Below are positions 3,804-57,145 of a stretch of 60,209 nucleotides of DNA, piece after piece. Below the pieces are notes generated by a model. It saw only the letters and a program-made list of their open reading frames with translations, ran no database searches and was not told where the DNA came from. How positions within the stretch are numbered: position 1 is the stretch's first letter; the number at the start of each line of letters is the position of its first letter. The stretch comes from Candidatus Omnitrophota bacterium (GTDB lineage: Bacteria > Omnitrophota > Gorgyraeia > Aquiviventales > Aquiviventaceae), in the NCBI GenBank assembly GCA_023247215.1, contig JAHFGX010000002.1, positions 1 through 60,209 on the forward strand. The letters run 5' to 3'. The translations under genes were made by a program, and so were the position numbers.

Positions 3804-5374
<1,571 letters not shown>

Positions 5375-5560: not shown

Positions 5561-5638
5561 TCTTGTCAACCCGTTCTTTTTCAAGGTTCACGTGGGATCA
5601 CATGACCACGCGGCCAGCTGTGGCGGCGCGCACCGTCG

Positions 5639-5711: not shown

Positions 5712-5770
5712 CGTTTTGTGAACCTCAACAGATTTGTCCTCCCTCCGGTCTTCCCGGAGCTGAGGGCTGC

Positions 5771-5783
5771 TGCTCTTTGACAA
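5771..5783 (+). promoter_or_regulatory. boxA element (TGCTCTTTGACAA), 23S leader
   Basis: Second boxA-like copy, 30 nt upstream of the 23S processing stem. Confidence 0.6.
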
Positions 5784-5811
5784 CTACATTGGTCTCGTCG
5801 AGTTTCTTCGT

Positions 5812-8807
<2,996 letters not shown>

Positions 8808-8852
8808 ACGGTTTTTATTTACTCGACGAGACAACCAATGTAGTTGGTCAGT

Positions 8853-8888
8853 TTGGCTGCGAAGCGGGTGACACCGCTTCGCAGCCAA
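8853..8888 (+). other. perfect 15-bp hairpin in the 23S-5S spacer
   Basis: TTGGCTGCGAAGCGG (8853-8867), loop GTGACA, CCGCTTCGCAGCCAA (8874-8888). Confidence 0.7.
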
Positions 8889-8895
8889 CCGTTTT

Positions 8896-9013
8896 CTGGA
8901 GTGCCTATACCGAGGGGGTCACACCCGATCCCATTCCGAATTCGGTCGTTAAGCCCCTCAGGGCCGATGGTACTTATCCCGCAAGGGATTGGGAGAGTAG
9001 GACGGCGCTCCGG
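8896..9013 (+). rRNA. rrf: 5S ribosomal RNA
   Basis: Helix I CTGGAGTGCC/GGCGCTCCGG, conserved CCGATCCCATTCCGAA and GTACT...GGGAGAGTAGG segments, 118 nt, followed by a T-run. Confidence 0.85.
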
Positions 9014-38902: not shown

Positions 38903-39025
38903 CAGCCACGAGAAAGGCAAACCTCCCCGCCAATGGGTTGGGCCGGGGACCCGCCGACGCAGTGATGGCGGGCTCGGGAACGAGGGGACGCAAAACCACG
39001 GGTCCCAGTGAGGATAGCCTGGCTG
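38903..39025 (+). ncRNA. candidate c-di-GMP-I (GEMM-I)-like riboswitch aptamer
   Basis: AAAGGCAAACC (38913-38923) and GGGGACGCAAAACC (38984-38997) match the two most conserved GEMM-I segments. They flank a hairpin closed by CCTC/GAGG, and the whole element is closed by a 6-bp P1 CAGCCA/TGGCTG (38903-38908 with 39020-39025). Confidence 0.45.
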
Positions 39026-39214
39026 CCACACGATTGACGCTAGGTTCTCCCCCCACGGATAGCCGGGTTGCCGCATCGGGGCATCTGACCTGTGAGGGGA
39101 AGAACCGTCACGAAGCTTCACTCAACTTCGTTCGCCTCTTGGCGGACCACCCCTCAATCAGATTTCCCCTTATGAGGTCCAAAATTCTGTGGTAAGGTAG
39201 GACGAGGGGGTGGT

Positions 39215-39583
39215 GTGGGAGAGATGAAGACCTTATTGATCGTCGATGATGAAAGCAAGGTCTGCCTTCTGCTGTCACGATTTTTTGAACAGCGGGGGTT
39301 GCGGACGCTGACCGCCACCTCAGGGACGGAAGCGCTGCAGAAGCTGGAGGCGGAGACCCCGGAGTACCTCTTATTGGATATCCGCATGCCGGATATGTCG
39401 GGGCTGGAGGTCTTGAAGCTGGCCAAGCAGCGGCACCCTCGCCTCAACGTCGTGATGTTAACTGGGTGCACTGACGCTGAAGCGGCTCAAACCGCCTTTC
39501 AACTGGGTGCGACCGACTACCTCACCAAACCGTTCCGATGGGGAGACCAGGAACTCGCGCGCGTTTTCTTTGACCCGAATTGA
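39215..39583 (+). CDS. single-domain response regulator (CheY-like REC), first gene of the secretion operon
   Basis: LLIVDDES, LLLDIRMPDMSG, VVMLTG and TKPF. GTG at 39215 or ATG at 39224. Confidence 0.8.
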   Translation: MGEMKTLLIVDDESKVCLLLSRFFEQRGLRTLTATSGTEALQKLEAETPEYLLLDIRMPDMSGLEVLKLAKQRHPRLNVVMLTGCTDAEAAQTAFQLGATDYLTKPFRWGDQELARVFFDPN

Positions 39584-39602
39584 CTTCCCCACCTCTTCGC
39601 TG

Positions 39603-41345: not shown

Positions 41346-42554
41346 ATGCCCCAGTACGTCTACCGGGCCAAGGACAACACCCTGAACGTCATCGAAGGGA
41401 CGATTGAGGCGGACAACGAGGCGGCCGCGATCACCCGTCTTGGTAGTCAAGGGGTATTCCCGCTCGTGATTACCGAGGCGGTGGCCCCCCGCTCCAGCCG
41501 CCCGAGCGTTTCCCACCGCGCCATCCCCAGCCGCACGATCGCCTACATGACCCGCCAACTCGCCGATTTGTTGGGCGGTGGTCTCCCGCTGCTGAGTGCT
41601 CTGACGCTGTTGGCCAAGCAGACGGAGCATCGTCCGTTGCGGCAGGTCATCGACTCCTTGAGTGCGAGCGTGCGCGAGGGGCAGTCCTTGAGCGCTGCGA
41701 TGGCGTATCATCCTGAGGTGTTTTCCACGCTCTACCTGAATATGGTCAAAGCCGGGGAAGTCGGCGGAGGGTTGGAGACGGTGCTGGTGCGGCTGGCCGA
41801 TGTGGGCGAGGCGGACGCGGAGCTGCGGAGTCGCGTCGTCAGCGCGCTGGTGTATCCCGCTATCGTGCTCGGGATCGGTCTGGTGACGGTGGGGGTGCTG
41901 TTGGTTTACGTGATCCCAAAAATCACCGGCATCTTTTCGGAGAGCGGGCAGTTGTTGCCCCTACCGACGAGGATCCTGCTGACGATCAGCCAGACGGTGA
42001 CGCAGTGGTGGTGGACGCTGCTTCTCAGCGTGGTGGTGATCGTCTGGCTCACGCGGCAGTGGCGGCTTGCTCCTCATGGGCGCCAGGTGTTAGACCAGTG
42101 CGTCCTGCGCTTGCCGCTGGTCGGGACGCTGTCCCGCAAGCTGGAGACCGCCCGCTTTACCCGGAACCTCGGCGTGATGATCGGGCAGGGCGTTCCCATC
42201 TTGCAGGCGCTTGAGGTCGGCTCGCACAACGTCTCGAACGTCGTCATCCAACGGGCCTTGCGGCAGGTGCAGGAGGCGGTTCGCGACGGCACCAGCATCG
42301 CGTCGGCGCTGAGCGCCTGCGGGCAATTTCCGGTCTTTGTCAGCAATATGGTGTCACTGGGAGAAGAGTCCGCCACGGTGGATACGGCGCTACTCAAGGT
42401 GGCAGTCGCCTACGAGCGGGAGGTCGATCGGACCATGCGGACGCTGACGACGGTGTTGGAGCCGTTGCTGATCGTGGTGGTGGGGCTGATCGTCATGTTC
42501 ATTGTGATCTCGATATTGCTGCCGATCTTCAACATTGGATTGGTGGCGCAATGA
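41346..42554 (+). CDS. gspF: type II secretion system platform protein GspF/PilC
   Basis: 402 aa with two T2SSF repeats, 3 TM segments, and typical ...LL..G.PLL.AL... motifs. Confidence 0.9.
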   Translation: MPQYVYRAKDNTLNVIEGTIEADNEAAAITRLGSQGVFPLVITEAVAPRSSRPSVSHRAIPSRTIAYMTRQLADLLGGGLPLLSALTLLAKQTEHRPLRQVIDSLSASVREGQSLSAAMAYHPEVFSTLYLNMVKAGEVGGGLETVLVRLADVGEADAELRSRVVSALVYPAIVLGIGLVTVGVLLVYVIPKITGIFSESGQLLPLPTRILLTISQTVTQWWWTLLLSVVVIVWLTRQWRLAPHGRQVLDQCVLRLPLVGTLSRKLETARFTRNLGVMIGQGVPILQALEVGSHNVSNVVIQRALRQVQEAVRDGTSIASALSACGQFPVFVSNMVSLGEESATVDTALLKVAVAYEREVDRTMRTLTTVLEPLLIVVVGLIVMFIVISILLPIFNIGLVAQ

Positions 42555-43030
42555 TGCATCGAAATCTACACGAGGGGCAAGGGGCAGGGGCATGGAACAC
42601 ATCCCACGCCCCACGCCCCACGCCCCTTCGTGGGTTCACCCTCGTCGAGATTATGCTGGTGGTCATCATCATCGGGGTCCTCGCGGCGATGGTGATCCCG
42701 CGGTTTGCCGGGCGGACGGAGCAAGCTCGAATCGCCCGCGCCAAATCCGACATCGCCATCATCGGACAAGCGCTCGACCTGTACGAGTTGGACATCGGGC
42801 AATACCCGGAAAGCCTGGAGATGCTGGTACAGCGGGAAGCGCCCTCAAGCCTTGAGGAGGGCGCCGCCTTGCGGTGGAACGGACCCTACCTGAAAAAAGG
42901 CTTGCCGAAGGATCCCTGGGGGAGTCACTACCACTTCCGTGCGGAGTCTCAGCATAACCAAGACTACGATTTGTACTCGTTAGGCCCCGACGGTCAGGAA
43001 GGCCACGACGACATCACCGACTGGGAATGA
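42551..43030 (+). CDS. gspG: major pseudopilin GspG with an unusually long (28 aa) prepilin leader
   Basis: RG|FTLVEIMLVVIIIGVLAAMVIPRF class III signal, then the GspG core ARIARAKSDI...LDLYELDIGQYPESL...DPWG..Y...S. ATGATG overlaps the gspF stop. Confidence 0.85.
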   Translation: MMHRNLHEGQGAGAWNTSHAPRPTPLRGFTLVEIMLVVIIIGVLAAMVIPRFAGRTEQARIARAKSDIAIIGQALDLYELDIGQYPESLEMLVQREAPSSLEEGAALRWNGPYLKKGLPKDPWGSHYHFRAESQHNQDYDLYSLGPDGQEGHDDITDWE

Positions 43031-43046: not shown

Positions 43047-43580
43047 TTGCGAATTTCGGATTGCGGATTGAAACACCGGGATTCGAAGCCTCCTCGTAGC
43101 TTTACCTTAATCGAGTTGGTGTTTGTCGCCGTCGTGGTGGTTCTGCTACTGGTGGTTTCCCTCCCGCAGTTTTCCAAAACCTCACAACGCCTCCACGCCG
43201 AGCAGGTTGCGTTCGAGCTAGCGCAACTGTTGCGCTTCGCCAGGGAACAGGCGATCACCCGCGGGCACGTCGTCGTGTGGGTCTGGAATGCATCGGCGCG
43301 TCGTGCACGACTTGAGGCCCTCGATGGCACCGGCCAGCAAGTGCCGATTGCGGATCGCCTGGCGCAGAGTGCTGTTGTGCCAAGCGACGTCACACTCCGT
43401 CTGACGCAGGACGGCGCTCAAACCGATGCGGTGAAATTTTTTCCGGACGGCACCAGCCAGCCGACGAGCCTGCTTGTGAGCGGTGGTGCCACCGTCTATA
43501 CTGTGACGGTGGATGTTGCGACCAGCCAGGTGGCGGTGATGACCGATGCGACGACAGAGTCGGGGGCTGCTGCTCATTGA
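43047..43580 (+). CDS. gspH: minor pseudopilin, GspH-like
   Basis: RS|FTLIELVFVAVVVVLLLV prepilin-like N-terminus and a GspH-like body (AFELAQLLRFAREQAI). TTG start; an alternative TTG lies at 43068. Confidence 0.6.
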   Translation: MRISDCGLKHRDSKPPRSFTLIELVFVAVVVVLLLVVSLPQFSKTSQRLHAEQVAFELAQLLRFAREQAITRGHVVVWVWNASARRARLEALDGTGQQVPIADRLAQSAVVPSDVTLRLTQDGAQTDAVKFFPDGTSQPTSLLVSGGATVYTVTVDVATSQVAVMTDATTESGAAAH

Positions 43581-43941
43581 AGCCATCCTTGCCGCGGTGG
43601 TGATCGCGGTGGGGCTGGTCTTCGTCAGCCGCGGCCTCTCCAGCCAGCTCGAGGCACTTCGAACAGTCGAGGACTACGACACGCTGATGACGTTGGCGCG
43701 CAGCCGCCTGCTGACGCTTGAAGCGGAACGGACGGCAGGCCGCGTCACCGGCCACCTGAACGCAAGCGAGTTCGACGCCCCCTATCAACACTACCACTGG
43801 GCGATTACCACGCAGTCGCTGGGAGCCGACACGCTGTACCGCGAGGTGATCCTGACGGTGCGGCGGAGCGACGGCCCTTCGTCGGTGGTACAACTCTCCG
43901 AAGTTTGGCCGACCGAATGGGTTCCTGAAGAATGGCTCTGA
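43546..43941 (+). CDS. gspI: minor pseudopilin, GspI-like
   Basis: MRRQSRG|LLLIEAILAAVVIAVGLV with E+5. The size (131 aa) and its position after gspH fit GspI. Confidence 0.55.
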   Translation: MRRQSRGLLLIEAILAAVVIAVGLVFVSRGLSSQLEALRTVEDYDTLMTLARSRLLTLEAERTAGRVTGHLNASEFDAPYQHYHWAITTQSLGADTLYREVILTVRRSDGPSSVVQLSEVWPTEWVPEEWL

Positions 43942-44546
43942 GCCGGCGCGGCCTGACGTTCGTCGAACTGTTGATTGCAGCGACGATGCTGTCCATTCTG
44001 TTCGTGGGGTTGAGTGGGCACCTGCGAGGCGGCATCGAAGTGTGGCGGCGCGCCACGCACACCGTTGAGGCTCTTCAGCGTCAGCGGGTGGCGCTTGATC
44101 AGTTCGAGCAGGATCTGGTCCGCGCGATCCCCGCTACCGTCCCTCGCGACCCCTCGCTGCAGCCGAGCTTTGAGGCCGACCATCTTCGGTGGTGGACGGT
44201 GGTGCCAGCAGCAGCACAGCAGACCGGTCGAGTCCGTTTGGTTTCGTACGCCTGCAATCAGGTGAACGGAGTCGCAGGATTATGGAAGGTCAGCCAGTCG
44301 GTGGGTGAGGCGCGCGAACAGATGGCGGCCGAGCCCGTCCGATTGCTGGCCGGCTGCGAGGGGCTGTCGATCCGGTATGCGTATCTGCCGGCCGAGGGCG
44401 AGGGGCCGATCGAGTGGCAAGCCGACTGGGAATTTCCTGATGCGCTGCCGAAGCTGCTCGAGGTATCGGTCCGGCTGTCGTCGGGTCATGAGGTCAAACG
44501 GACGATGATGATCCCCATCGGCGTGTTGGAACCCCGTCCCTCGTAA
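43932..44546 (+). CDS. gspJ: minor pseudopilin, GspJ-like
   Basis: MALSRRG|LTFVELLIAATMLSILFV with E+5; 204 aa; position matches the G-H-I-J-K order. Confidence 0.55.
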   Translation: MALSRRGLTFVELLIAATMLSILFVGLSGHLRGGIEVWRRATHTVEALQRQRVALDQFEQDLVRAIPATVPRDPSLQPSFEADHLRWWTVVPAAAQQTGRVRLVSYACNQVNGVAGLWKVSQSVGEAREQMAAEPVRLLAGCEGLSIRYAYLPAEGEGPIEWQADWEFPDALPKLLEVSVRLSSGHEVKRTMMIPIGVLEPRPS

Positions 44547-45527
44547 ATGAAACGAGGCTCGTTGCTGATTGTGACCCTTTGGATGGTGACGCTCTTGAGC
44601 GTCTTGGCGATCGCCATGGCGAAATATCTGTCGCTCGAAGTCCGGCTGACCAAGTACCGGTTGGCGCGCGAGCAAGCGAAAGCGCTGGCCCGCAGCGGCG
44701 TGTATCTGGCAATGCAGCGGTTGGCGGCGGATGCGCAGCAGGCCGATGAACGGTATGACTGGTTGGGGGATGATTGGGCCATGTTTGCGCCTCCGGAGGG
44801 GGAGTTGGATCATCCGGCCGCATGGATTGTGCCGCTTCCGGCAGCAGGCTCAAGGGTTTCAGAACGTGGTCGGGTGGAAATTCAGATGATCGACGAAGAG
44901 CGAAAACTGAACCTCAATCAGATCGCCTGCGACCCCGCCTCTGCCACCTACAAGGCGTTCACCAACTTCTCAGAGACCGTGGGATGGGTCGAGAAGCTCG
45001 TCGATTATCACGATATGGATAGCACTCCGTGTGGCTCCAACGGCTTGGAGGAAGATGACGCTGTCCAGCCACCGTACAAAGCAAAGGACGCAGCGCTGGT
45101 GGCCCATGAAGAGGTGCTGGACATTCCGGGCTGGCCGGCCGAAACGCTCTCGACGATGCGACAATGGTCGACGGTGGCTGACCCCACCACTTCATCGAAT
45201 ATCACATTGAACATCAACACGGTGTCCCCGGAACTCTTGGTGGCGTTAGGCTTCGGCCAGGCGACAGCGCAGGCGCTGGCTGCCTGCCGTGAGCAGGGGA
45301 TGGTGTTCAAGGAGGCCTCCAACATCCTGACGACTGCGGAATCGTGCGCCGGTCCGTCCGGATTGAGCTCTGCTGAACGGAGCCTGCTGGCCAGCCAGTT
45401 TGTCGTCGCCTCGCAGACGTTTACCGTCATTTCGACCGGGATCGTGGCGGAGCTGGCGGTCAAGGTTCAGGTCGAAGCAATCGTTCAACGTTCGCCGGAG
45501 CTCAAGATCCTTGCGTGGAGAGAGTGA
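44547..45527 (+). CDS. gspK: minor pseudopilin GspK
   Basis: N-terminal hydrophobic segment lacking E+5, DEERKLNLNQ (GspK K-L-N-I-N motif), and a C-terminal HhH-like region. Confidence 0.7.
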   Translation: MKRGSLLIVTLWMVTLLSVLAIAMAKYLSLEVRLTKYRLAREQAKALARSGVYLAMQRLAADAQQADERYDWLGDDWAMFAPPEGELDHPAAWIVPLPAAGSRVSERGRVEIQMIDEERKLNLNQIACDPASATYKAFTNFSETVGWVEKLVDYHDMDSTPCGSNGLEEDDAVQPPYKAKDAALVAHEEVLDIPGWPAETLSTMRQWSTVADPTTSSNITLNINTVSPELLVALGFGQATAQALAACREQGMVFKEASNILTTAESCAGPSGLSSAERSLLASQFVVASQTFTVISTGIVAELAVKVQVEAIVQRSPELKILAWRE

Positions 45528-46933
45528 TGGCGACACGGATCGCGATTGAGTGGGCCCGCAATTCATTGCGACTGGCCGTCTCGAAGGGTTCGCAGGATCG
45601 GTGGCGCCTACGGGAGCTCCGCGTCGAGCCGTTCGAATCGGGCACGGCGCCGGCGGCCGTGTTGCGCACTGCCCTCAAGGCGCTGAGGCTGGGCGGGGGC
45701 GTGCGGGTGATCGGCGTGATTCCTCGCGAGCAAGTGATCTTGCGGGTGATGAAGTTTCCGACGACGTCATCCGAGGAGTTGCGGCAAATGGTGGAGCTGT
45801 CCGGCAAAGCGCAACTGCCCTATGCCACAGAGCAGGCGGTTGTCGACTACTCACTGATCGATCAGCGAGAGGGGTTTAGCACCGTCGCGATGGTCGCCTG
45901 CCAGCGCGACTTCTTGGAGCGGCAACTCCATCCCTTGCACGAAGCCGGTCTGCAGGTCGAGTGCTTGACCGTCAGTTCTTCCGGCGTGCTGGGCTGGTAT
46001 ACGGCCGCGCGGATGACCAGTCTGGTTGAACCGGTGCTCGTGATCAACCGCGATGAGGATCGGACGGATCTGGTGCTCATCAGAGACGGGAGGCTGTTGC
46101 TGACGCGAAGCATCCCCTCCGGCAGCGACGAGGATGGCCCGGAGCTGCTGACACATGAAATCGAGCAGAGCCTCTCCACACTGCGCAAGGACCTGCCGGG
46201 GATCGAGGTGCGTTCGTTGCTCTTGACCGGGGTCGGTCCGCTGGCGGCGTGGAAAGAGAAGGCGTCACAACACCTCAGCCTGCCGGCATCGGTTGTCGAT
46301 GGGGCGCAGCCGCTGACCGGACGGGCCATGAGCGAAACCGCTTCGGCGTCTCCGGTGGTTGTCGGCGGAGCGGCCTGCGCGCCAACGCGTCAACTCCTGA
46401 ACCTCAACCCGCCCGAAGTGCGGCAGACGACCCGCCACCAGTCGCAGGTGCGTGAGGTGGTGACGGTGGGGGCGCTCCTCTTGGCAGTCTTGGTGTTGGG
46501 GGGCAGCGTCTCGGCGTTGCACGTGTACCGTCAGTATCGTCTGATCGCGCGCATCGATCAGGCGATTTCGGAGGTGGATCCATTGACGCGTCAAACGAAA
46601 ACCGCGGCGCAGAGGGTCGAGCTCGTGACGGCGGTGCTTGAGCAACGTCGCCGGCTGGCCGCGTTGCTGGGCGGCGTCTTTCGAAGCACGCCATCGACGA
46701 TCACGCTGGACGCGCTGACGTTTGATCGCTTACGGCGCGAGATGGGGCTGCGTGGCCGCGCGCCGTCGACGCAAGACGTCCTGGCGTATCGCAAAGCGCT
46801 GGAACAGCTGGAGGGTGTGGCGGAAGCCCGCCTGAAGTACGCCACGGCACGACAGACGGCCGACGGCGAGCGCGCAGATTTTGAAATCCTCGTCAAGACC
46901 ACGGATCACGAACCCCGACCCGCAACGCGCTAA
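45527..46933 (+). CDS. PilM-PilN fusion (GspL-equivalent assembly platform protein)
   Basis: Actin-like PilM N-terminal domain, a TM segment VVTVGALLLAVLVLGGSV, and a PilN-like periplasmic C-terminus. ATG overlaps the gspK stop. Confidence 0.6.
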   Translation: MATRIAIEWARNSLRLAVSKGSQDRWRLRELRVEPFESGTAPAAVLRTALKALRLGGGVRVIGVIPREQVILRVMKFPTTSSEELRQMVELSGKAQLPYATEQAVVDYSLIDQREGFSTVAMVACQRDFLERQLHPLHEAGLQVECLTVSSSGVLGWYTAARMTSLVEPVLVINRDEDRTDLVLIRDGRLLLTRSIPSGSDEDGPELLTHEIEQSLSTLRKDLPGIEVRSLLLTGVGPLAAWKEKASQHLSLPASVVDGAQPLTGRAMSETASASPVVVGGAACAPTRQLLNLNPPEVRQTTRHQSQVREVVTVGALLLAVLVLGGSVSALHVYRQYRLIARIDQAISEVDPLTRQTKTAAQRVELVTAVLEQRRRLAALLGGVFRSTPSTITLDALTFDRLRREMGLRGRAPSTQDVLAYRKALEQLEGVAEARLKYATARQTADGERADFEILVKTTDHEPRPATR

Positions 46934-46934
46934 G

Positions 46935-47459
46935 ATGCCATCCTTCAGGCCACGTGAGCGCCGGTTGCTGCTGGTGACGTTGATCGTGATCGGTTGCTGG
47001 CTCATCGTTTCATGGCTGGTCGTGCCACTGAGCCATCGCGCCCAAGACTTGGAGCAGCGTGTGGATTCCCAGACGATGGCGCTTGAGGCCCTCAATCGTC
47101 TGCTGGCCCGGCAGACGTCGATTGAGCAGCACTACCAGGCGGTGGCCGGCTATCTATCAACAGACAAGCCGGAGGCTGCGGAAGAGCGGCTGTTGACCGA
47201 TTTGCAAATCTTTGCGCAGCAGGCGGGCGTGCAGATCAATCTCAAACCCAGACCTGCCAAACGGGAAGGGCAGGTGACTCGCGTGGGGGTCGAAGTCGAT
47301 CTGCACACCAACCAAGACAAACTGTTTGCGTTCCTCGACGCGCTGCTGAGGATGCCGAAGCTCGTGCAGATTGAGCATCTGCAGATCTCCGGCGCGCCGG
47401 GCCAACCCGGCATCCTCCATACCCAACTCCTCATCGAACAGCTGACCATTCCGCAATAG
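46935..47459 (+). CDS. GspM/PilO-like inner membrane platform protein
   Basis: N-terminal TM LLLVTLIVIGCWLIVSWLVV, a coiled coil, and a ferredoxin-like C-terminus (VGVEVDLHTNQDKLFAFLDAL). Confidence 0.55.
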   Translation: MPSFRPRERRLLLVTLIVIGCWLIVSWLVVPLSHRAQDLEQRVDSQTMALEALNRLLARQTSIEQHYQAVAGYLSTDKPEAAEERLLTDLQIFAQQAGVQINLKPRPAKREGQVTRVGVEVDLHTNQDKLFAFLDALLRMPKLVQIEHLQISGAPGQPGILHTQLLIEQLTIPQ

Positions 47460-47561: not shown

Positions 47562-47810
47562 ATGATTCGAGTAGATAACCTTTATCTGATCAAAGACTTA
47601 TCAAGGTTAAGCGGGCACTCGATCTATACCATTAAGTTCTATCTGAAGTTGGGGCTGATTCAGGAAGTCGGGCGAAGCCAAGAGACGCGGTTTCGCTATT
47701 TTAATGAAGAGACGTTAGAGCGCCTGGCGAGGATCCGTGCCTTACGCAAGGAAGGCAAGGGGTTGACCGACATCGCGCGTCTCTTGCCCACGATGGACCG
47801 CGCGGCATGA
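47562..47810 (+). CDS. short MerR-family HTH protein (DNA-binding domain only)
   Basis: 82 aa. YLIKDLSRLSGHSIYTIKFYLKLGLI...RFRYFNEETLERLARIRALRKEGKGLTDI matches the MerR HTH plus wing with no effector domain. Its stop overlaps the exeA-like start (ATGA). Confidence 0.7.
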   Translation: MIRVDNLYLIKDLSRLSGHSIYTIKFYLKLGLIQEVGRSQETRFRYFNEETLERLARIRALRKEGKGLTDIARLLPTMDRAA

Positions 47811-48646
47811 GTTATTACACCGTGCTGGGCCTCGCGAAAGAGCCGTTCTCCACGAGTCCCGATCCATTCTTTTTCTACCGTTCCAGTGCCCACCTGCAGG
47901 CCATCACGCGGATTGAAATCGCCATCCGGCTCAAACGAGGCCTGTCGCTCATTCTGGGCGACGTGGGCACCGGCAAGACGACGCTAGCCCGCACGCTGCT
48001 GACCAACTTCCCGCAGGAAGAAGGGTTCAATTTCCATATCCTGCTGGATCCGTCCTTTGAGTCCGAATACCAGTTCTTGCTGCACCTCAGCCGCATCTTC
48101 GGCGTGCAGCCGGCCTTCAAATCCACGCTCGACTGTCGGGAGGCGATCGAGCATTACCTCTTTCAGAGCGGCGTCACCGAGGGCAAGACGACCGTCCTGG
48201 TGATCGACGAAGGCCAGAAGCTGTCCACGCACATGTTGGAGAACCTGCGCGTCCTGCTGAATTACGAGACCAACGAATTCAAGCTGCTGCAGGTCGTGAT
48301 CTTTTCGCAGATGGAGCTGCTCGGACGGATCACGCGGATCAAAAACTTCATCGACCGCGTGGCCCTCAAGTACATCATCAATCCGCTGAATGAAGAGGAA
48401 ACCAGCCAGATGATCCAGTTCCGTCTGCAGTCGGCCGGGCTGGAGTCCTCACGGATCGTCTTCATGCCGGAGGCCATTCGAGCCGTCTACCGGTGCACCC
48501 AAGGCTACCCGCGCAAGATCGCCCTCCTCTGCCATAATGCGCTGGAGGCGATGGTGATGTACGAGCGGCCGGTGATTGACGAGTCGCTCATCCAGGAGTT
48601 GGCTGCTCATGAGTCCCGATGGGTCGGCGCAGGCGCCCCTGCCTGA
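47807..48646 (+). CDS. ExeA/GspA/MshM-like AAA ATPase
   Basis: PF..SPDP.F.Y.S..H..A N-terminus, Walker A GDVGTGKTT, and Walker B VLVIDEGQ. No peptidoglycan-binding domain. Confidence 0.8.
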   Translation: MSYYTVLGLAKEPFSTSPDPFFFYRSSAHLQAITRIEIAIRLKRGLSLILGDVGTGKTTLARTLLTNFPQEEGFNFHILLDPSFESEYQFLLHLSRIFGVQPAFKSTLDCREAIEHYLFQSGVTEGKTTVLVIDEGQKLSTHMLENLRVLLNYETNEFKLLQVVIFSQMELLGRITRIKNFIDRVALKYIINPLNEEETSQMIQFRLQSAGLESSRIVFMPEAIRAVYRCTQGYPRKIALLCHNALEAMVMYERPVIDESLIQELAAHESRWVGAGAPA

Positions 48647-49247
48647 AGAAAAACTATTGAAGTTGATTCGGGGTAAGCCCCGCCACCCCGCTGCGTCGTC
48701 GCCGCTGGCGGCTGCCAGCCGCGAGATACGCCACGTCCTGCGTGCCTCAGACGGGGAGACAGCGTGGTGGTTCCACTGGCCCCAATGGGTCGGTGGCCTG
48801 TTGGTCGCGATCCTGGCCATCGAAGTGCTGGTGATGGTCGTGCAGATCATTCGCCCGCTCCCGCATGTCGAGCTCCCCGCTGTGACAGCGACCGCCCCGT
48901 CCGCCGTCGACCGCACAACGGCGCCATCCGTCGAGATGCCGTCCCTGAGCGAACAGCCGGCGCAATCCATTTTCGCGACGACGGCTGCTGAGCCACAGTG
49001 GGCAGCGGCATCCTCGTCGTCGACGGTGTCGCCGAGCGCCCAAGCCAACGCCTTGGCGGCGCGCTTGAGCTTGGTGGGGATCGTCGCCGGCGATCCGCCG
49101 CAAGCGATCATCGAAGACAGCCAGACCCAAAAGACGTTCTTCGTCACCAAAGGACAGCGGGTGATCGAAGGTGCCGTGCTTCAGGAGATCCGGGATTCTC
49201 ACGTGATCCTCCAGTATCAAGGAGAGCAAATTGAACTCACACTCTGA
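48609..49247 (+). CDS. GspB/GspC-like secretin-interacting protein (PilP/HR-type C-terminal domain)
   Basis: TM WVGGLLVAILAIEVLVMVV and C-terminal LSLVGIVAGDPPQAIIEDSQTQKTFFVTKGQRVIEGAVLQEIRDSHVILQYQGEQIELTL. AGGAG lies 10 nt upstream of the ATG at 48609. Confidence 0.55.
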   Translation: MSPDGSAQAPLPEEKLLKLIRGKPRHPAASSPLAAASREIRHVLRASDGETAWWFHWPQWVGGLLVAILAIEVLVMVVQIIRPLPHVELPAVTATAPSAVDRTTAPSVEMPSLSEQPAQSIFATTAAEPQWAAASSSSTVSPSAQANALAARLSLVGIVAGDPPQAIIEDSQTQKTFFVTKGQRVIEGAVLQEIRDSHVILQYQGEQIELTL

Positions 49248-51087
49248 GTCCCTGCGCATGACGGCCATCCTCCTCGCGGGGCTGCTGTGGGGAGGAGGGA
49301 GCGCATCGGCCGACGCGCAAGCCCCCGCGCAGTCCACGGCCAGCAACGCCACCCAACCCGAAGGGACGGCGGACCGTATCTCGTTGGATCTGAAGGGGGT
49401 CGACATCCTCGATGTGTTGAAGCTCCTGTCACAGAAGAGCGGGCTGAACTTTGTGGCCGGCCACAACGTGACCGGGCGGGTGACGATCTTTGCGAACGAC
49501 GTGGGGGTATGGGAGGCGTTTGAGCGGATCATCGATGCCAACGAACTAGCCTATGAGCGCGCCGGGAACATCGTGACGGTGACGACCGCCCGGGACTACG
49601 AGCTGCTCTACGGACGCCCCTTCCAACAACGCAAGCGCAACGCCGTGATCCCCCTCCGGCATGCGAAGGCGGCGCAGGTCGCGACCGCCTTGAACCAGCT
49701 CAAGTCCACGGTGGGCCGCGTGGTCGTGGATGAGCCCTCGAACACCGTGATCCTCACCGACACGGCCGCCCCGCTTGCCGAGATGGAGCGGTTCGTCGCG
49801 CAACTGGACCGCCCGACGACGACGTTGATCTATCCCCTCGAGTACGCCGAGGCGGAGAAGCTCCAGGACAAGATCCAGGGCTTTCTCACGCCGGGGGTGG
49901 GGACCTTCACCGTGGATGCGCGCACCAACAAGGTCGTCGTGACGGATCTGGCGGAGGTCGTCTCGAAGATCGATCAGGTCCTGGATGCCTTCGACGAGCG
50001 CGACTCAGAGGTGCTCATTGAGGCCAAGATCATCAAGGTGGAGCTCAGCGATGAAGAGAGCCTCGGCGTGGATTGGCAGCAGGTGTTTGCCGGGGTGGAC
50101 ATGCAGGCGCGCGGCAACTTCCGGGTGCTCAGCGATATCGTCGGCGGGACGGGGACCGGCGTCGCCTTGAAATTCCTGAGCGCTCCGGGTGGGCGGACCC
50201 AGGTGATTCTGGAGGCGCTCAAGAAATTCGGCAAAGTGGAGACGATGTCCAATCCGCGGATCACCGTGTCGGATCGCCAGGAGGCCAAAATCCTCATCGG
50301 CACGAAAGAAGCGGTGGTCACGGTGACGACGACGGTGCCCGCGACCGGGGCAACGGTCAGCGCCCCCCAGGTCCAATTCGTGGACGTGGGCACCAAGCTC
50401 TACGTCACCCCCAGCATCAAGCGGGACGGGCACGTGCAACTGAAGATTCGTCCTGAGGTCAGCACGGCCAAGGTGGAGACGTTTCAAAGCAACCGGATTC
50501 CCATTGTCAGCACGACGGAGGCGGAAACCAGCGTCCTGGTCAAGAGCGGGGTCACCCTCATCATCGGCGGGTTGATTGACAGTAAGACCGAACGCGCCCA
50601 GGTTCAGGTACCGTTGCTGGGGAGCGTGCCCGTGCTGGGGGCGGCGTTCCGGAGCCGCACGAACACGACCAAGAAAACCGAGCTGGTGGTGTTCCTCACT
50701 CCACAGATCATCTCAGCCAGCGGCGAGCCGGTCACCCAGTTTCCGACGTCTGCGCTGCCGGCCGGCGCCGCCAAACGCGCTGGGGCGCTCAAACCGGCGG
50801 TGCCGGAAGCGTACCAAGCGCTCCTTCGTGCGCTCATCAGTACCCGGGTCGCCCAAGCCCTCCGGCAAAGCGCAGCGGGCGCCGGCTCCGTCTTGCTTGC
50901 TCTGACGATCACCCGCGACGGCAGCGTCAGCGGCGCGCCGCACATCACCAGCGATCAGGGAGTCGTATTCGTCCAGGCGGCTGCGAAGGCGCTTGAGGCC
51001 CTTGAGCCATTCCCCCCCTTCCCCGACGAAACCTCTACCGACTCCGCGCGCTTCCGGCTGGAGGTGGAGTACCGTCCCGCGAGCTGA
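49231..51087 (+). CDS. gspD: secretin (GspD/PilQ/MshL family) with a TonB_C-like C-terminal extension
   Basis: Signal peptide, N0 (ISLDLKGVDILDVLKLLSQKSGLNFV), N1/N2 repeats, and secretin core (VPLLGSVPVLGAAFRS....ELVVFLTPQII), plus a 94-aa TonB_C-like tail. TTG start with AAGGAG. Confidence 0.85.
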   Translation: MNSHSESLRMTAILLAGLLWGGGSASADAQAPAQSTASNATQPEGTADRISLDLKGVDILDVLKLLSQKSGLNFVAGHNVTGRVTIFANDVGVWEAFERIIDANELAYERAGNIVTVTTARDYELLYGRPFQQRKRNAVIPLRHAKAAQVATALNQLKSTVGRVVVDEPSNTVILTDTAAPLAEMERFVAQLDRPTTTLIYPLEYAEAEKLQDKIQGFLTPGVGTFTVDARTNKVVVTDLAEVVSKIDQVLDAFDERDSEVLIEAKIIKVELSDEESLGVDWQQVFAGVDMQARGNFRVLSDIVGGTGTGVALKFLSAPGGRTQVILEALKKFGKVETMSNPRITVSDRQEAKILIGTKEAVVTVTTTVPATGATVSAPQVQFVDVGTKLYVTPSIKRDGHVQLKIRPEVSTAKVETFQSNRIPIVSTTEAETSVLVKSGVTLIIGGLIDSKTERAQVQVPLLGSVPVLGAAFRSRTNTTKKTELVVFLTPQIISASGEPVTQFPTSALPAGAAKRAGALKPAVPEAYQALLRALISTRVAQALRQSAAGAGSVLLALTITRDGSVSGAPHITSDQGVVFVQAAAKALEALEPFPPFPDETSTDSARFRLEVEYRPAS

Positions 51088-51093
51088 TCTGCC

Positions 51094-51568
51094 TTATGGC
51101 AGAGGTAGATGAACTCCAGCGAGAGGTTGAAGGGACAGACAGCGCGGATACGGCTTATTGTATCGGAGGGTTCGCCGGACGACGAAGCCGTGAGCTTCCA
51201 GCAGGCGCTGCCACCCGCGCCATCTCGTCCAGGCCCCGTTCCATATCCCGGTAACGCTCCAGGCTTCCCAAACTGGTGACATAGTCAAACGTGCCATCAG
51301 GAAACGGGAGGCGTTCGCCGGCTCCGATACACAGCGCGGCGTCCGGGCAGCGGGCCCGCGCTCGTCGAACGGCCTCGGCCGACAGATCCACGCCGGTGGG
51401 ACGCAGGCGCGCCCGGCGCGCACACACCAGTAGGTACCCTTCGCCGCACGCGACATCCAACAGGCGACGACCCGGCACGGGTTGCAGCAAGCCGATCACC
51501 CGTTGGTAGATTCGGCCTGGATCAGAGAGGCCGTGCTCGCGATGGACGCGGTCGTAAAAGGCCCGCAC
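51094..51568 (-). pseudogene. decayed class I SAM-dependent methyltransferase
   Basis: Frame A (51155-51568) has motif I LLDVACGEG, D.S, FDYV and RVAAPAG, then stops. The typical C-terminal LLEAHGFVV continues in another frame (51094-51456), so there is a frameshift and/or internal deletion. Confidence 0.4.
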
Positions 51569-51792: not shown

Positions 51793-52596
51793 ATGAGAAA
51801 AGGCCAGCATGTGGAAATACGTGATCCCAGTTGGACGTTTCGAGTCGCCTGGCGAGGGAAGACCCTGATGCGGTGGAATTGGAAACGGGCGTTGCTGCAG
51901 CGCTTCCTCCCCATCCCATTCTCTGCGCGGAACGCGGAGTACTCGTTGCTGGCATCCACCGATGATGACGTGCGGCCTTCGGCGCAACTCCTGCGCTTGG
52001 GCATTCAGGCCATCCAGCGGGCGGCGGATCTTCGGCTGGATGCGTTGGACCAACGTTTCCCGCCGAACTTTCCTTATCCTCCTTCGCTGTGGCCTGGCCA
52101 GCAATACCGGCTGTTGGCCGCCTTGGCCGAAATCCTGCAACCGCGGCAGGTCATTGAAATCGGAACCGGCGCCGGGGTTTCCACTCTGGCGATGAAGCAG
52201 TATTTGCCGCCTGATGCGCAGATGGCGACATTCGATGTGGCGCCCTGGTCACGGCACCCGGACGCGTGCTTAACTCAAGCGGATTTCGCCGACGGCCGGC
52301 TGATTCAACACACGGATGACTTAAGTGATCCAGCGGTGATGCAACGCCATCACGCGCTGTTCAGCCGCGCGGAACTCATTTTTCTGGACGCCCCGAAAGA
52401 CGGCGTGATGGAACCCAAGCTCCTGGCCAATCTCCAACAGGTACCCTTTACGAAACCGCCCCTGCTGATCCTGGATGATATTCGGGTGTGGACCATGTTA
52501 AAGGTCTGGCGGGGGATCCCGTATCCCAAGCTGGATTTAACCTCCTTTGGAAGTTGGACCGGCACCGGGCTAGTCGAGTGGGGACGCGGCGTCTAG
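51793..52596 (+). CDS. class I SAM-dependent (O-)methyltransferase-like protein
   Basis: VIEIGTGAGVSTLAM motif I and ELIFLDAPKDG. The N-terminal boundary is uncertain. Confidence 0.55.
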   Translation: MRKGQHVEIRDPSWTFRVAWRGKTLMRWNWKRALLQRFLPIPFSARNAEYSLLASTDDDVRPSAQLLRLGIQAIQRAADLRLDALDQRFPPNFPYPPSLWPGQQYRLLAALAEILQPRQVIEIGTGAGVSTLAMKQYLPPDAQMATFDVAPWSRHPDACLTQADFADGRLIQHTDDLSDPAVMQRHHALFSRAELIFLDAPKDGVMEPKLLANLQQVPFTKPPLLILDDIRVWTMLKVWRGIPYPKLDLTSFGSWTGTGLVEWGRGV

Positions 52597-53494: not shown

Positions 53495-56400
53495 ATGCGC
53501 GTAAAGACGCTTGAAGTCTTCGGATTTAAATCCTTCGCCAAGAAAACCGCCATCCATTTCGAGCCCGGCGTCACCGCCATCGTCGGCCCCAACGGCTCGG
53601 GAAAATCAAATTTAGTCGACGCGATCCGCTGGGTCCTGGGGGAGCACAACCCCCGCGACGTGCGCGCCCCCCGCCTGGAAGACGTGATCTTCAACGGCAC
53701 CGACACCGCCGCACCCCTCTCGATGGCGGAGGTCAATCTCCTCATCGAGAACGAGCAGGGCCTGCTGCCCATCGCCTTTACCGAAGTGCTGCTGACCCGC
53801 CGCGTCTACCGCTCCGGCGAGAGCGAATGCTTCATCAACCAAAGCCCCTGCCGCCTGAAAGACATCCACGAGCTGTTCCTCGGCACCGGGCTGGGCGGCG
53901 GCACCTACGCCATCATCGAGCAGGGCCACATTGACATGGTGCTCTCCTCCAAGCCGGAGGAGCGGCGCGTCGTATTTGAAGAAGCCAGCGGGGTCGCCAA
54001 GTATCTCTCCAAGAAGCAGGAGACGCTGCGCCGGCTGGACGAAGTGGAGCAGCACCTGGTGCGGCTGGCGGATATCACCTCCGAGGTGCGGCGGCAGTTG
54101 TCGCTCCTGGAGCGGCAGGCGGCCAAGGCGCGGCAGTACCAAAGCCAGTGGGAGCAATTGAAGACGGGCGAGGTGCGCCTGACGGCCGATGAGCTGCGCC
54201 GGGGCGAAGAGCTGCATCAGCAGCTCTCCATCCAGGTGGCGGCGCTGAAGCAGCAACAAGGCGGCTTGGAGGCGGGACGGCAGGAGCGGCTGACCCAGCT
54301 TGAAGTCTGCCAGGCGGCCGTCTCAGCGGTACAAGCCGAGCTGCAGGAAGCGCGCACGCGCCTGGTGGAAGTGTCCAGCCGCATCGAACAGCACGCCAGC
54401 CAGCTGGCGCTCAAGGGGCAGTGGCTGGAGCAGCTCGCCCAGCAGCGCCAGCAGTTGGAGCGCGAGGAGATCCAATTAGACGAGCGCGGCAAGCAGGCCA
54501 CCGAGCAGGTGGAGCGGTTGACCGCGCAGCAGCGAACACTCACACAGCAGCAGGAGGAGCTGGACGCGCAGCGGCACGCTGTGGCGCGCGACGTGGAGAC
54601 GCTGGAGCGCGGGGTGGCCGACGCGCTGCAGGTGATCGACGCGGCCAAGCGCGAGTTGTTCGCGGCCGCCGCCGAGGCCTCGCAGCAGCGGAATGCGCTG
54701 ACCAGCTCGACGCTGCGCCTGCAGTCGCTGGACGCGCAGCTGGCCCGCGTGACCGCGGCCCAGGCGGCGGCGCAGCAGCGGTTGGAGTCGCTGACGGCGA
54801 AGGCGAACGGGGTCGAGCAGGAGCGGCAGGCGCTGCACGAGCAGGTGGCGACGCTTCGGCAGCAGGCGGAGCAAGCCAAGCAGGCGCTGGACCAGGCGAA
54901 CAGCCGGCACCAGGAGCTGGCGGGCCGGCTGCAGGAAGTGCAGGAGCGCACGCTCCGGCAGCGCGCCCAAACGCAGCTGCTGGAAGAAATATGGCGGCGC
55001 CACGAAGGATTTCCGGAATCGGTCAAGGCCTTGCTGGCCAATCCGCCTGAGGGCGTGCTGGGGTTGTTGGCCGACCTGTTGGACGCGCACCCCGGCTACG
55101 AGCGGGCGCTGGAAGCGGCGATGGGGCCGCTGGCCGGCGCCATCGTCGTGCGGGATCGCGATGCTCTCAAACGCTGCCGCGAGCTCGTCAAGACCGACCA
55201 GCTGGGCGAGGCGCGTTTTATCGTCCTCGCGGATGCGGAATTGACGCCGGCAGCCGCGCTTCCGCCCGTTGTGTCGTCCCACCCGGGCGTGTTAGGGCCG
55301 CTGCTCAACTTTGTGAAGGACGATCCGGTCGCGCGGCCGTTTATGGACTGGTTGTTGAATCCCTGGTGGGTGGCGGATGACTTGGGGCGCGTCATGGACT
55401 CGGGGCTGCGCTCACCGCGGCAGTGGGTGAGCCCCGCCGGCGACCGATGGGACGGCCACGGTTGGCATTTCTCCGGCGGCGCGAACCGGGTCTCGAGCGT
55501 CGTGGGGCGCCGGCAGCGATGGGAACGGGCCGCGGAAGAATTGGAGGCATCGGAGCGGGATTTCGCCGGGGTCCAATCCGCGTGCCAGCAGGCGGAGGAA
55601 GCGCGCCGCTCCTGTTCGACGATGGAGAGCCAGGCGCGCGAGCAGCTGGAGCGGGCGGTGCCGGCGTTGACAAAACTGGAGAACCACACCGCGCAGCTGT
55701 CGCATGACGTGAGGCGGCTGCGCGAGGAGCTCGACACGCACGCGCTGGACCTGCACGAGCTGCGCGGCCAGCAGGCCCAGGTGCAGCAGGCGCAGGCCGC
55801 AGCCCAGCAGGCGGTGTCGGAGTCGGAAGCGCGCCATCACGCCCTGCAGGAGACGCTGCAGGTCTCCCAGCAACAGCAGGACGACGCCACCCAGCGCCGG
55901 CAAGCCTTGCTGGTCTCCGGCGCGCAGGTGGATGCCGCCATGGCCGCCTGCCGTGAGCGGACGCAGGAAGCTGCCGCCCGGCTGGACGAGCTGCAACGCG
56001 AGTACGTCCGCCTGCAGGCGGACGTGGAAGCCAAGCGCGCGCAAGGCCGCGCCAGCGCCGACCGCGTGGCGGAGCTGACCCGCGAGCGCGAGACGCATGA
56101 GCAGGACGCCCAGGGGCTGACGGAAGAGCGGCAGGGGCTCGAGGGGCGCGTGGCGCAGGTGGCGGACCGGCTCCACGAAGAGGAGCTCACGCGGGACCAG
56201 GTGTTGCCCGCGTTGTCCGCGATCGAACGGGATGTGCTGGCCGTCACGCATGCCCTGCAACAACAGGAAAGCCAGTTTGCCGAGCGCAGCTTCCGCCGGT
56301 CCCGCATCGTCGAGCGGTTGCGGGACGTGTACCAGATCGAGGAGAGCCAGGTGCTCCAGGTCCGAGAGGAGCAGGGGCAGGCGGCCGCGCCCTTGTCCGA

Positions 56401-57145
56401 CGAGGAGCGCGCGGCCCTCACCGACCAGGTGGACAAGCTTAAGGCCAAGCTCGGCACGATCGGCCCGGTCAACTTGGGATCGGTGGAGGAGTACGACAGC
56501 CTGAAGCAGCGCCTGGAATTCCTCCAGACGCAGCAGCAGGACCTCGTGAAAGCGCGGGAAGATCTGAAGGCCTCCATCACCCAGATCAACCGGACCGCCC
56601 GCCAGCAATTCCGCGAGACCTTCGCCAAAATCACCGCGGAGTTCCAGCACTATTACACCCAGCTCTTCCGCGGCGGCGAGGCCAACCTGATCCTCCTGGA
56701 TGAGGAGGACGTGCTGGAGTCCGGCATCGAGATCGTGGCCCGCCCGCCTGGCAAGCGGCTGCAGAGCATCAGCTTGCTCTCCGGAGGAGAGCGCGCGCTC
56801 ACGGCGATCGCGCTGCTGTTCGCCCTGTTTAAAGTGCGTCCCTCGCCTTTCTGCATCCTGGATGAAATTGACGCGCCGCTCGACGAGGCCAATGTGGACC
56901 GGTTCACCAAGGTGCTGGAGGAGTTCCTCAGCTTGTCCCAGTTCATCCTCATCACGCACAACAAGAAGACCATCACGAAAGCCGACTCCCTGTACGGCGT
57001 GACGATGGAGCAGCCGGGCATCTCCAAGGTGGTCTCCGTCAAGCTGACGACGCGCGCCAAGCCGTCCGAGGCGCCTGCCGCTCCGGCGCCTGAAGCCGTC
57101 CCCGCTGCCCCAGCGCCGGCGGATACGGACGCCGTCCCTGCGTAG
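53495..57145 (+). CDS. smc: chromosome segregation protein SMC
   Basis: N-terminal Walker A GPNGSGKSN, long coiled coils, a hinge, C-terminal signature LSGGERALTAIALLFA, and Walker B ILDEIDAPLD. Confidence 0.95.
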   Translation: MRVKTLEVFGFKSFAKKTAIHFEPGVTAIVGPNGSGKSNLVDAIRWVLGEHNPRDVRAPRLEDVIFNGTDTAAPLSMAEVNLLIENEQGLLPIAFTEVLLTRRVYRSGESECFINQSPCRLKDIHELFLGTGLGGGTYAIIEQGHIDMVLSSKPEERRVVFEEASGVAKYLSKKQETLRRLDEVEQHLVRLADITSEVRRQLSLLERQAAKARQYQSQWEQLKTGEVRLTADELRRGEELHQQLSIQVAALKQQQGGLEAGRQERLTQLEVCQAAVSAVQAELQEARTRLVEVSSRIEQHASQLALKGQWLEQLAQQRQQLEREEIQLDERGKQATEQVERLTAQQRTLTQQQEELDAQRHAVARDVETLERGVADALQVIDAAKRELFAAAAEASQQRNALTSSTLRLQSLDAQLARVTAAQAAAQQRLESLTAKANGVEQERQALHEQVATLRQQAEQAKQALDQANSRHQELAGRLQEVQERTLRQRAQTQLLEEIWRRHEGFPESVKALLANPPEGVLGLLADLLDAHPGYERALEAAMGPLAGAIVVRDRDALKRCRELVKTDQLGEARFIVLADAELTPAAALPPVVSSHPGVLGPLLNFVKDDPVARPFMDWLLNPWWVADDLGRVMDSGLRSPRQWVSPAGDRWDGHGWHFSGGANRVSSVVGRRQRWERAAEELEASERDFAGVQSACQQAEEARRSCSTMESQAREQLERAVPALTKLENHTAQLSHDVRRLREELDTHALDLHELRGQQAQVQQAQAAAQQAVSESEARHHALQETLQVSQQQQDDATQRRQALLVSGAQVDAAMAACRERTQEAAARLDELQREYVRLQADVEAKRAQGRASADRVAELTRERETHEQDAQGLTEERQGLEGRVAQVADRLHEEELTRDQVLPALSAIERDVLAVTHALQQQESQFAERSFRRSRIVERLRDVYQIEESQVLQVREEQGQAAAPLSDEERAALTDQVDKLKAKLGTIGPVNLGSVEEYDSLKQRLEFLQTQQQDLVKAREDLKASITQINRTARQQFRETFAKITAEFQHYYTQLFRGGEANLILLDEEDVLESGIEIVARPPGKRLQSISLLSGGERALTAIALLFALFKVRPSPFCILDEIDAPLDEANVDRFTKVLEEFLSLSQFILITHNKKTITKADSLYGVTMEQPGISKVVSVKLTTRAKPSEAPAAPAPEAVPAAPAPADTDAVPA

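Follow-up and report, generated by a model that had tools for sequence, protein, structure and literature searches.

Secretins need help in reaching, entering and staying in the outer membrane, and the known solutions differ from system to system: an S-domain with its pilotin, lipidation of the secretin itself, AMIN or LysM domains as peptidoglycan anchors, and ExeAB. In the known secretin structures, the segment that follows the barrel is periplasmic and lies at the outer rim of the channel. Here we describe a secretin that carries, after its barrel, a tail consisting of a flexible hinge and a domain of the TonB/TolA C-terminal domain clan. The protein (618 amino acids) is a secretin of the kind found in type II secretion systems (T2SS) and is encoded at 49231..51087 on the + strand of a 60,209-nucleotide stretch of DNA from a Candidatus Omnitrophota bacterium (contig JAHFGX010000002.1 of assembly GCA_023247215.1, positions 1 to 60,209; hereafter the window).

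The window protein shares with the T2SS secretins GspD, PulD, ExeD and EpsD the series N0, Secretin_N and Secretin, an extra module after the barrel, and a Gsp operon context. However, it has three N-domains where T2SS GspD has four, and its barrel is followed by a hinge and a TonB-type domain of about 90 residues, not by the helical S-domain of the GspD proteins that work with a pilotin (PulS, AspS). There is also a parallel with RcpA-TadD (PDB 8odn), in which assembly and localisation are determined by docking at the secretin's C-terminus (PMC10499894), since Tad-type secretins with named members from Omnitrophota (see below) carry TonB_C domains at that same end; but whereas the last four residues of RcpA are a peptide that lies in the TPR groove of TadD, here the polarity would be reversed, with the secretin carrying the peptide-binding domain. 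Additional periplasmic modules that fix or assemble a secretin are found in the AMIN domains of PilQ, the LysM ring of TsaP (PDB 6ve2) and ExeA/ExeB, and the window gene likewise has an AAA_22 ATPase and a GspB/C-like protein encoded nearby. In contrast to those modules, which are N-terminal or act in trans, the one described here is C-terminal, in cis and of a different fold. Similarly, PocAB-TonB3 of P. aeruginosa and TonB2 of A. baumannii are cases in which a TonB-family protein is functionally linked to a secretin-based machine, but these act in trans with a motor, whereas the tail is a C-terminal domain alone, fused to the secretin. The tail domain itself resembles the C-terminal domains of TonB (H. 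pylori 5lw8 and 6sly, HasB, FusB, E. coli TonB-BtuB/FhuA) and TolA domain III, both in fold and in detectable sequence homology. Unlike TonB, the window protein has no N-terminal transmembrane anchor with its S..H motif and no association with ExbBD, and its domain sits on an outer-membrane channel instead of being anchored in the inner membrane. At its N-terminus there is a signal peptide of the cleavable type and then N0, in place of a TonB-type transmembrane helix. Without the anchor and the motor association, this secretin cannot transduce energy, and the name 'TonB family protein' would therefore be misleading for it.

The anatomy of the protein can be followed from one end to the other, with all coordinates on the + strand. 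The listed start codon is a TTG, with an ATG at codon 10 as an alternative start, and the stop codon lies at 51085-51087. A predicted Sec signal peptide without a lipobox (residues 1-29, ending ...ASADA before Q; 49231..49317) was recognised by inspection of the sequence and of homologous N-termini. It is followed by an N0 domain (residues 49-127, STN or GspD-N0-like; 49375..49611), for which both Pfam scores fall under their cutoffs (STN 24.4 bits, type_II_gspD_N0 18.5 bits) and whose fold is present in the AlphaFold2 (AF2) model at a predicted local distance difference test (pLDDT) value of ~90. Two Secretin_N-type ring domains come next (residues 136-192 and 196-254; 49636..49992), matched by Pfam in 2 stretches (86.1 bits, E=1.9e-24) and consistent with the AF2 secondary structure. 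The barrel spans residues 260-494 (50008..50712) according to the AF2 strands, and Pfam Secretin (PF00263) matches residues 329-494 with 148.5 bits against a gathering score of 27.5 (E=1.8e-43). Among NCBIfam secretin models the best is GspD (TIGR02517, 254.8 bits), under its equivalog cutoff of 351.35. PilQ (TIGR02515) gives 244.1 bits against a cutoff of 284.35, no AMIN domain is matched by Pfam, and the genetic context is pseudopilin/T2SS-like. Furthermore, the best fold matches of the full-length model in the PDB are the T2SS secretins PulD (6hcg), GspD (5zdh), ExeD (6i1x) and EpsD (6i1y). The 618-residue protein is a secretin, of T2SS type by context and fold, and by analogy with known secretins it probably forms a gated outer-membrane channel of 12-15 subunits.

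The initial annotation of this DNA, made from the letters alone, quoted a sequence that is indeed the translation of the open reading frame (ORF) 49231..51087, and it placed the end of the secretin core correctly at ...ELVVFLTPQII (residue 494). The extension beyond that point, which it put at ~115 residues, is in fact 124 residues long and is divided into a linker of ~31 residues and a domain of ~90. The linker, or hinge (residues 495-525; 50713..50805, with position 50803 in the codon of residue 525), varies across the family, is rich in P (15%), A (12%), V (10%), E (9%) and S (9%), and has a pLDDT below 50 over most of its length. The TonB/TolA-type domain follows at residues 526-616 (50806..51078). 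In the full-length AF2 model, which was built from an 85-sequence alignment and has a mean pLDDT of 84.5, residues ~501-525 form a low-confidence hinge, residues 526-614 reach pLDDT 96-98, and no helical (helix-turn-helix) S-domain is seen after the barrel.

For the single window sequence the match to TonB_C is borderline. The Pfam model TonB_C (PF03544, residues 551-615) scores 24.1 bits in the whole protein and 27.3 bits on the tail alone, against a gathering cutoff of 24.6; TonB_2 scores 17-21 bits against a cutoff of 22, and the NCBIfam model tonB_Cterm (TIGR01352) gives 27.7 bits on the tail alone against 27.1. At the level of the family, the match is far beyond chance. When the 51 non-redundant homologous tails that make up the tail alignment were scanned individually with Pfam, 49 matched TonB_C at E<=0.01 (best E=1.2e-8) and 35 matched TonB_2, with no rival Pfam family among the 51. 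Searched against the PDB, the tail profile matched the H. pylori TonB C-terminal domain in 6sly (E=3.4e-6) and in 5lw8 (E=8.6e-6), with weaker matches to HasB and TonB2. The AF2 model of the tail alignment has ~30 disordered residues followed by a confident domain, with 91 residues at a pLDDT of at least 90, and the topology is alpha-beta-beta-alpha-beta: a helix at 526-546, strands at 552-561 and 566-574, a second helix at 578-591, a PFPPFP loop and a final strand at 605-614. It thus contains the beta-beta-alpha-beta core of the TonB_C fold, in which a sheet of three strands packs on helices. In a Foldseek comparison of this model with the PDB, the first 13 places were all taken by TonB, HasB, FusB or TolA-III, with probabilities of 0.87-1.00 for 12 of them and 0.60 for Vibrio TolA, and with target-normalised TM-scores of 0.43-0.63. 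Because sequence profiles and fold both give TonB C-terminal domains, the assignment is independently supported: the tail belongs to the TonB/TolA C-terminal domain clan, as the initial annotation had proposed when it matched the last ~94 residues to TonB_C. A chance match is ruled out at the family level by the 51-tail scan, the PDB profile matches and the Foldseek result. The tail was also considered as a TolA domain III, a reading that is not supported, as TIGR02794 gives 16-22 bits against a cutoff of 59.45 and the nearest free relatives of the domain adjoin genes for TonB-dependent transporters and not Tol-Pal genes.

The tail is a constant feature of the family. Searching 5.8 billion protein clusters for homologs gave 1,769 proteins with E<=1e-10, and we inspected the best 120, which are 55-73% identical to the window protein and ~600 residues long. 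All 120 have a tail of the same kind past the core, in one case cut by a contig end, and 46 already bear a precomputed match to PF03544 or PF13103. The named source organisms among these 120 are all 'Candidatus Omnitrophica' or 'Candidatus Omnitrophota', a taxonomic statement that rests on the minority of clusters with source names and on two GTDB loci. A full-length member with the tail, 60% identical, is also present on a 2.6-kb contig (L001, GTDB record CAYJWO010000208.1) from a metagenome-assembled genome labelled 'uncultured Planctomycetales'; either this is a case of mis-binning or mislabelling, or the family reaches beyond Omnitrophota. Mean pairwise identity across the 120 homologs is 68% in the N-domains, 73% in the barrel, 28% in the hinge and 50% in the TonB-type domain. 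The hinge ranges from 14 to 44 residues (median 31), and the TonB-type domain has only 0.4% gaps. Purifying selection thus acts on the tail, whereas the hinge can change freely, and a conserved, nearly gapless domain after a variable hinge is the pattern expected of a flexibly tethered functional domain. Only 8 of the 120 family members, the window protein not among them, have a lipobox-like motif, and a self-piloting liposecretin of the HxcQ type was rejected on the ground that an N-terminal lipobox is not conserved.

The secretin and its tail are encoded by one gene. The sequence is present in four groundwater-metagenome runs, and a Logan contig of 1,083 nucleotides from one of these, an independent run, spans 50539-51500 with 0 differences and 0 gaps, crossing both the junction between core and tail and the stop codon; the support across the junction is in the form of assembled contigs. 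The third-codon-position G+C bias keeps the frame of the ORF throughout the tail, and the region of the junction contains no homopolymer of 5 or more bases. Where relatives lie on long contigs, secretin and tail are again one gene, and the gene that follows encodes a reductase of the SDR family (adh_short), not a TonB_C protein. No terminator-like or promoter-like sites were seen around the 3' end of the gene, which is uninformative. A frameshift or assembly join, about which the initial annotation had been concerned at ~50700-50800, is ruled out, as far as sequence data allow, by the Logan contig, the continuous frame signal and the single-ORF architecture of the best 120 homologs. The same annotation held that a secretin-TonB_C fusion was not known as a described architecture. 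This stands as far as the searchable literature goes, in which we found no description of one, including in papers on Omnitrophota genomes and on TolA/TonB evolution. It needs qualifying in that the architecture is not rare: it runs through the best 120 homologs and a Tad-type family, and has in part been annotated automatically, some members being named 'TonB C-terminal domain-containing protein' or 'TonB family protein' by NCBI or other automated pipelines.

The domain recurs on other secretins. An exhaustive search with the tail profile over 1.84 billion representative proteins gave 2,540 matches at E<=1e-3, and the best 150 were examined for secretin cores. Several of these also contain such a core, among them divergent GspD-like proteins (P0139, P0207 and P0160) and a protein of 851 residues with tandem copies of the tail behind a GspD-like core (P0129). 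Two others, P0248 and P0267, belong to the Tad type: they have a T2SS-T3SS_pil_N domain and, after the secretin, two strong TonB_C domains (126 and 105 bits), and the gene for P0248 adjoins one for a fused CpaE/CpaF-type ATPase. The combination of T2SS-T3SS_pil_N, Secretin and TonB_C is found in all of the best 120 matches to P0248, with a single TonB_C copy in 97 and two copies in 18; the organisms named among these matches are all Omnitrophota or Omnitrophica, and the protein names are 'pilus assembly protein CpaC' or 'TonB family protein'. Tails of the Tad type follow the canonical pattern (YP..A...GWEGTV...SSG). With the GspD-tail profile they reach ~18 bits, compared with 50-60 bits for free TonB proteins, and the two kinds of tail are therefore not each other's closest relatives. 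This suggests repeated capture, with the tails of GspD-type and Tad-type secretins representing separate captures or else a very old split. In a third secretin clade (around P0166), 9 of 120 members have the tail and the others are tail-less proteins of ~425 residues. The tail behaves as a modular add-on.

The best non-secretin matches point to where the domain came from. P0151-P0177 are proteins of 188-245 residues with an N-terminal transmembrane helix containing an S..H motif, a charged or Pro-rich spacer and a C-terminal domain that shares the signature Y..(I)R..I ... PFPPFP with the secretin tail. In two cases the gene lies immediately downstream of one for a TonB-dependent transporter (Plug plus barrel), in one of them near CobA/BtuR. 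On these comparisons, the secretin tail is the captured C-terminal domain of a genuine TonB and, since the nearest free relatives adjoin TonB-dependent transporters, its ancestral ligand was a TonB box. The search also found proteins with 3-5 tandem TonB_C/TonB_2 domains, or with TPR repeats and TonB_2 (P0141, P0142, P0149 and P0273); one tandem-TonB_C protein is recorded as a 'TonB family protein' of Candidatus Omnitrophica, and a member of its cluster has 1,183 residues. This expansion of tandem TonB_C domains may bear on what the secretin tail binds.

What, then, does the tail do? The initial annotation had suggested a tether to peptidoglycan, a TonB-box-like partner or a substitute for the pilotin or S-domain, and these are also among the candidates ranked here. 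The likeliest reading, to which we give an even chance, is that the tail substitutes for an S-domain: it would dock or anchor the secretin in the periplasm, through beta-strand capture of a partner in the cell envelope. From known secretin topology, the tail would lie in the periplasm. The ~31-residue hinge and the TonB-type domain occupy the place in which PulD/GspD, RcpA and InvG carry the pilotin-binding S-domain, and the assembled multimer would have a ring of tail domains hanging in the periplasm just beneath the outer membrane. Each domain would capture an extended, TonB-box-like segment of an envelope partner by beta-strand addition, in the manner of TonB and TolA domains, and this capture would target, tether or stabilise the secretin without the classical pair of S-domain and pilotin. 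Candidates for the partner are a transporter of the outer membrane, bound at its TonB box, a lipoprotein, and an adjacent subunit of the secretin itself. We infer both the mode of binding and the targeting or anchoring role by analogy: the C-terminal domains of TolA and TonB bind their targets by beta-strand addition (PMC12204202), and the C-terminus or S-domain of secretins is the docking site of pilotins, in pairings that are bespoke (PMC10499894). In addition, we count in favour of docking that the model contains no S-domain, that there is no conserved lipobox and that no pilotin family was named at the scanned loci.

Several points weigh against an S-domain substitute of this kind. The check for pilotin genes covered the window and a few loci only. 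Binding to the TonB boxes of transporters would mean competing with the real TonB, which seems costly, and if the domain did no more than staple adjacent subunits together, a hinge of 14-44 residues would be long. Furthermore, the GspD-type tail has no YP motif of the canonical TonB_C kind and has instead a 21-residue N-terminal helix that resembles TonB_2 or TolA; with the motif replaced by a long helix, the ligand specificity may therefore have changed. A broader version of the docking idea, which we think quite unlikely, is to see in the fusion a 'Rosetta stone' for a general and hitherto unrecognised mode of installing secretins without a pilotin. The tail would grab the TonB boxes of outer-membrane transporters, or a lipoprotein bearing a TonB box, and so bring the secretin to the outer membrane and hold it there; in other bacteria, dedicated TonB paralogues such as PocAB-TonB3 or TonB2 would make this contact in trans. 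If true, this would explain why these TonB paralogues are needed for type IV pili.

The main alternative is a peptidoglycan anchor: the TonB_C ring would bind to the cell wall, fixing the secretin against pulling forces or aiding its assembly, much as the periplasmic domain of ExeA or the C-terminal domain of OmpA does. The layout, an outer-membrane barrel followed by a Pro/Ala-rich hinge and a small periplasmic domain, resembles that of OmpA. Peptidoglycan is already used in this way by other secretin systems, as the AMIN domains of PilQ bind it and anchor secretins (PMC5285504) and TsaP is thought, in work cited in PMC8811193, to anchor the secretin to it; moreover, a dimer of TonB C-terminal domains has been proposed to bind peptidoglycan, as noted in PMC9022066, citing Kaserer 2008. 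The AAA_22 ATPase of the operon, read as ExeA-like, has no peptidoglycan-binding periplasmic part. In addition, the recruitment of two TonB_C subtypes by two classes of secretin and the existence of proteins with 3-5 tandem domains would fit a generic, multivalent polymer ligand better than a specific peptide. However, the binding of peptidoglycan by TonB C-terminal domains is a minority and weakly established view, whereas beta-strand addition is well established, and Pfam detects none of LysM, AMIN, OmpA_C, PG_binding_1 or SPOR in the tail. By analogy with these systems, a cell-wall anchor is a tentative proposal that we regard as unlikely.

The position of the tail would also suit an inter-subunit staple, in which the domain binds a strand of the neighbouring subunit, or the N-terminal region of its own, and stabilises the multimer without any external partner. 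The S-domain, whose place the tail takes, stabilises the multimers of GspD or InvG, and TonB C-terminal domains can dimerise (PMC9022066). Furthermore, the first ~10 residues past the barrel gain confidence in the full-length AF2 model (pLDDT about 72-93), and at least 90% of family members keep G498. A fixed staple would not, however, be expected to hang on a hinge that is long, variable in length and poorly conserved. A search by eye for a conserved TonB-box-like segment in the secretin gave nothing convincing, and N0 is probably beyond the reach of a 14-44-residue hinge in the assembled channel. We consider such a staple distinctly improbable.

Very unlikely, in our judgement, is a link to a Ton- or Tol-like motor, an idea that is purely analogical. 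The tail would pair with the C-terminal domain of a free TonB- or TolA-like protein, or with ExbD, and so couple the localisation or gating of the channel to a proton-driven motor; here too the fusion would be a 'Rosetta stone' for the unexplained need for PocAB-TonB3 (P. aeruginosa) or TonB2 (A. baumannii) in the function of type IV pili. TonB paralogues are indeed needed for secretin-based machines, with a contact between TonB3 and PilQ's N0 domain having been speculated upon (PMC5285504; PMC8811193), and the C-terminal domains of TonB form dimers and make contact with ExbD (PMC9022066). The window protein nevertheless lacks the N-terminal transmembrane helix through which TonB receives energy, and Pfam names no ExbB, ExbD or TonB in ~49 scanned ORFs of the window. 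Finally, the chance that the tail is an artefact of two fused neighbouring genes, or a decaying appendage without function, is close to negligible: the TonB_C score of the single sequence lies slightly under the cutoff in the whole-protein scan, but a Logan contig matches across the junction, the reading-frame signal is unbroken, the tail is kept in the best 120 homologs from many samples with 50% identity and hardly any gaps, the AF2 model is confident, and relatives have no separate TonB_C gene downstream.

The secretin gene is the last of a co-directional T2SS-like cluster on the + strand. By Pfam, this cluster encodes GspE with an MshEN domain (39507-41312), GspF (41346-42554), GspG (42551-43030), GspH (43047-43580), GspJ (43932-44546), GspK (44547-45527) and a GspL/PilM-like protein (45515-46933), with a 131-residue ORF without family assignment in the position of GspI (43546-43941) and a GspM that passes its NCBIfam cutoff (46881-47459). 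Then come a small MerR-family helix-turn-helix protein (47562..47810; Pfam MerR_1, E=4.6e-14) and a cytoplasmic AAA_22 ATPase of 279 residues (47807..48646; Pfam AAA_22, E=3.9e-20), both in conserved synteny. The best named match of the ATPase is the PEP-CTERM-associated ATPase family TIGR03015 (170 bits, under its cutoff), and we read it as resembling the N-terminal half of ExeA or MshM. No further Pfam domain, no periplasmic peptidoglycan-binding domain and, by eye, no transmembrane segment were found in it. Directly upstream of the secretin is the gene for a GspC/GspB-like inner-membrane protein (48576..49247; Pfam T2SSC, E=3.7e-9, with weak matches to T2SSB and to NCBIfam GspC), whose true start may lie downstream of 48576; the related loci L005, L006 and L007 have the same gene in the same place. 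The order from GspE to GspM, followed by MerR, AAA_22, GspC-like protein and secretin, is kept in two relatives that are 57-65% identical. No ExbB, ExbD, TonB, TonB-dependent transporter or pilotin family was named by Pfam in the ~49 scanned ORFs of the window or among the called genes of L005-L007. The best explanation of the cluster is a complete type II secretion-like (type IV filament) system.

Upstream of GspE there is a marginal candidate for a cyclic di-GMP (c-di-GMP)-I riboswitch (38906..39076, + strand), which scores 35.6 bits with Rfam RF01051 against a gathering score of 35 and 42.4 bits with RF03167, the GGC-variant model, against 59. Its core nucleotides are kept, with large loop insertions, and it lies ~140-185 nucleotides upstream of a receiver-domain ORF (39215-39583). 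MshEN is a c-di-GMP-binding domain. With this domain in GspE and the candidate riboswitch in front of the genes, the operon may therefore be under c-di-GMP control at two levels, that of RNA and that of protein.

Other features of the window can be mentioned briefly. Just upstream of the secretion operon and divergent from it is a gene for a 754-residue protein with Big_7 and NPCBM-associated domains (36349-38613, - strand), possibly a surface protein or a secreted substrate. Between the secretin and the SDR and SMC genes are two methyltransferase genes (51155-51568, - strand; 51793-52596, + strand) that L005 and L006, although syntenic in other respects, do not have, and whose third-position G+C of 0.68-0.70 is below that of their neighbours; the pair looks like a local insertion. 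The SMC protein of the window (53495-57145) is of ordinary length, at 1,216 residues. The one encoded downstream of the secretin in a related Omnitrophota locus (L006 12934-18216, L007 9004-14286) contains an intein with a LAGLIDADG endonuclease and has 1,760 residues. A complete rRNA operon occupies 3390-9013 (+ strand), with 16S at 3804-5372, 23S at 5812-8809 and 5S at 8897-9013, and tRNAs at 5485-5557 and 5639-5711 and a further one at 3390-3471; this operon explains the dip in G+C at 4-10 kb of the window.

In summary, Omnitrophota are ultra-small bacteria, many of which are inferred in published work to be host-dependent, a lifestyle in which their secretion and pilus machines are believed to play a central part. 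The names in public databases need care, as 'TonB family protein' is applied there to proteins that are unable to be energy transducers. The tail implies a non-transducing role for one of the best-studied periplasmic domains, and the fusion provides a concrete, testable approach to the question why some type IV pilus systems depend on TonB paralogues, for which there is as yet no explanation. Finally, the acquisition of a TonB-type domain by two or three classes of secretin in one phylum, at the very end where pilotins dock, points to another solution to the problem of bringing a secretin to the outer membrane and keeping it there.

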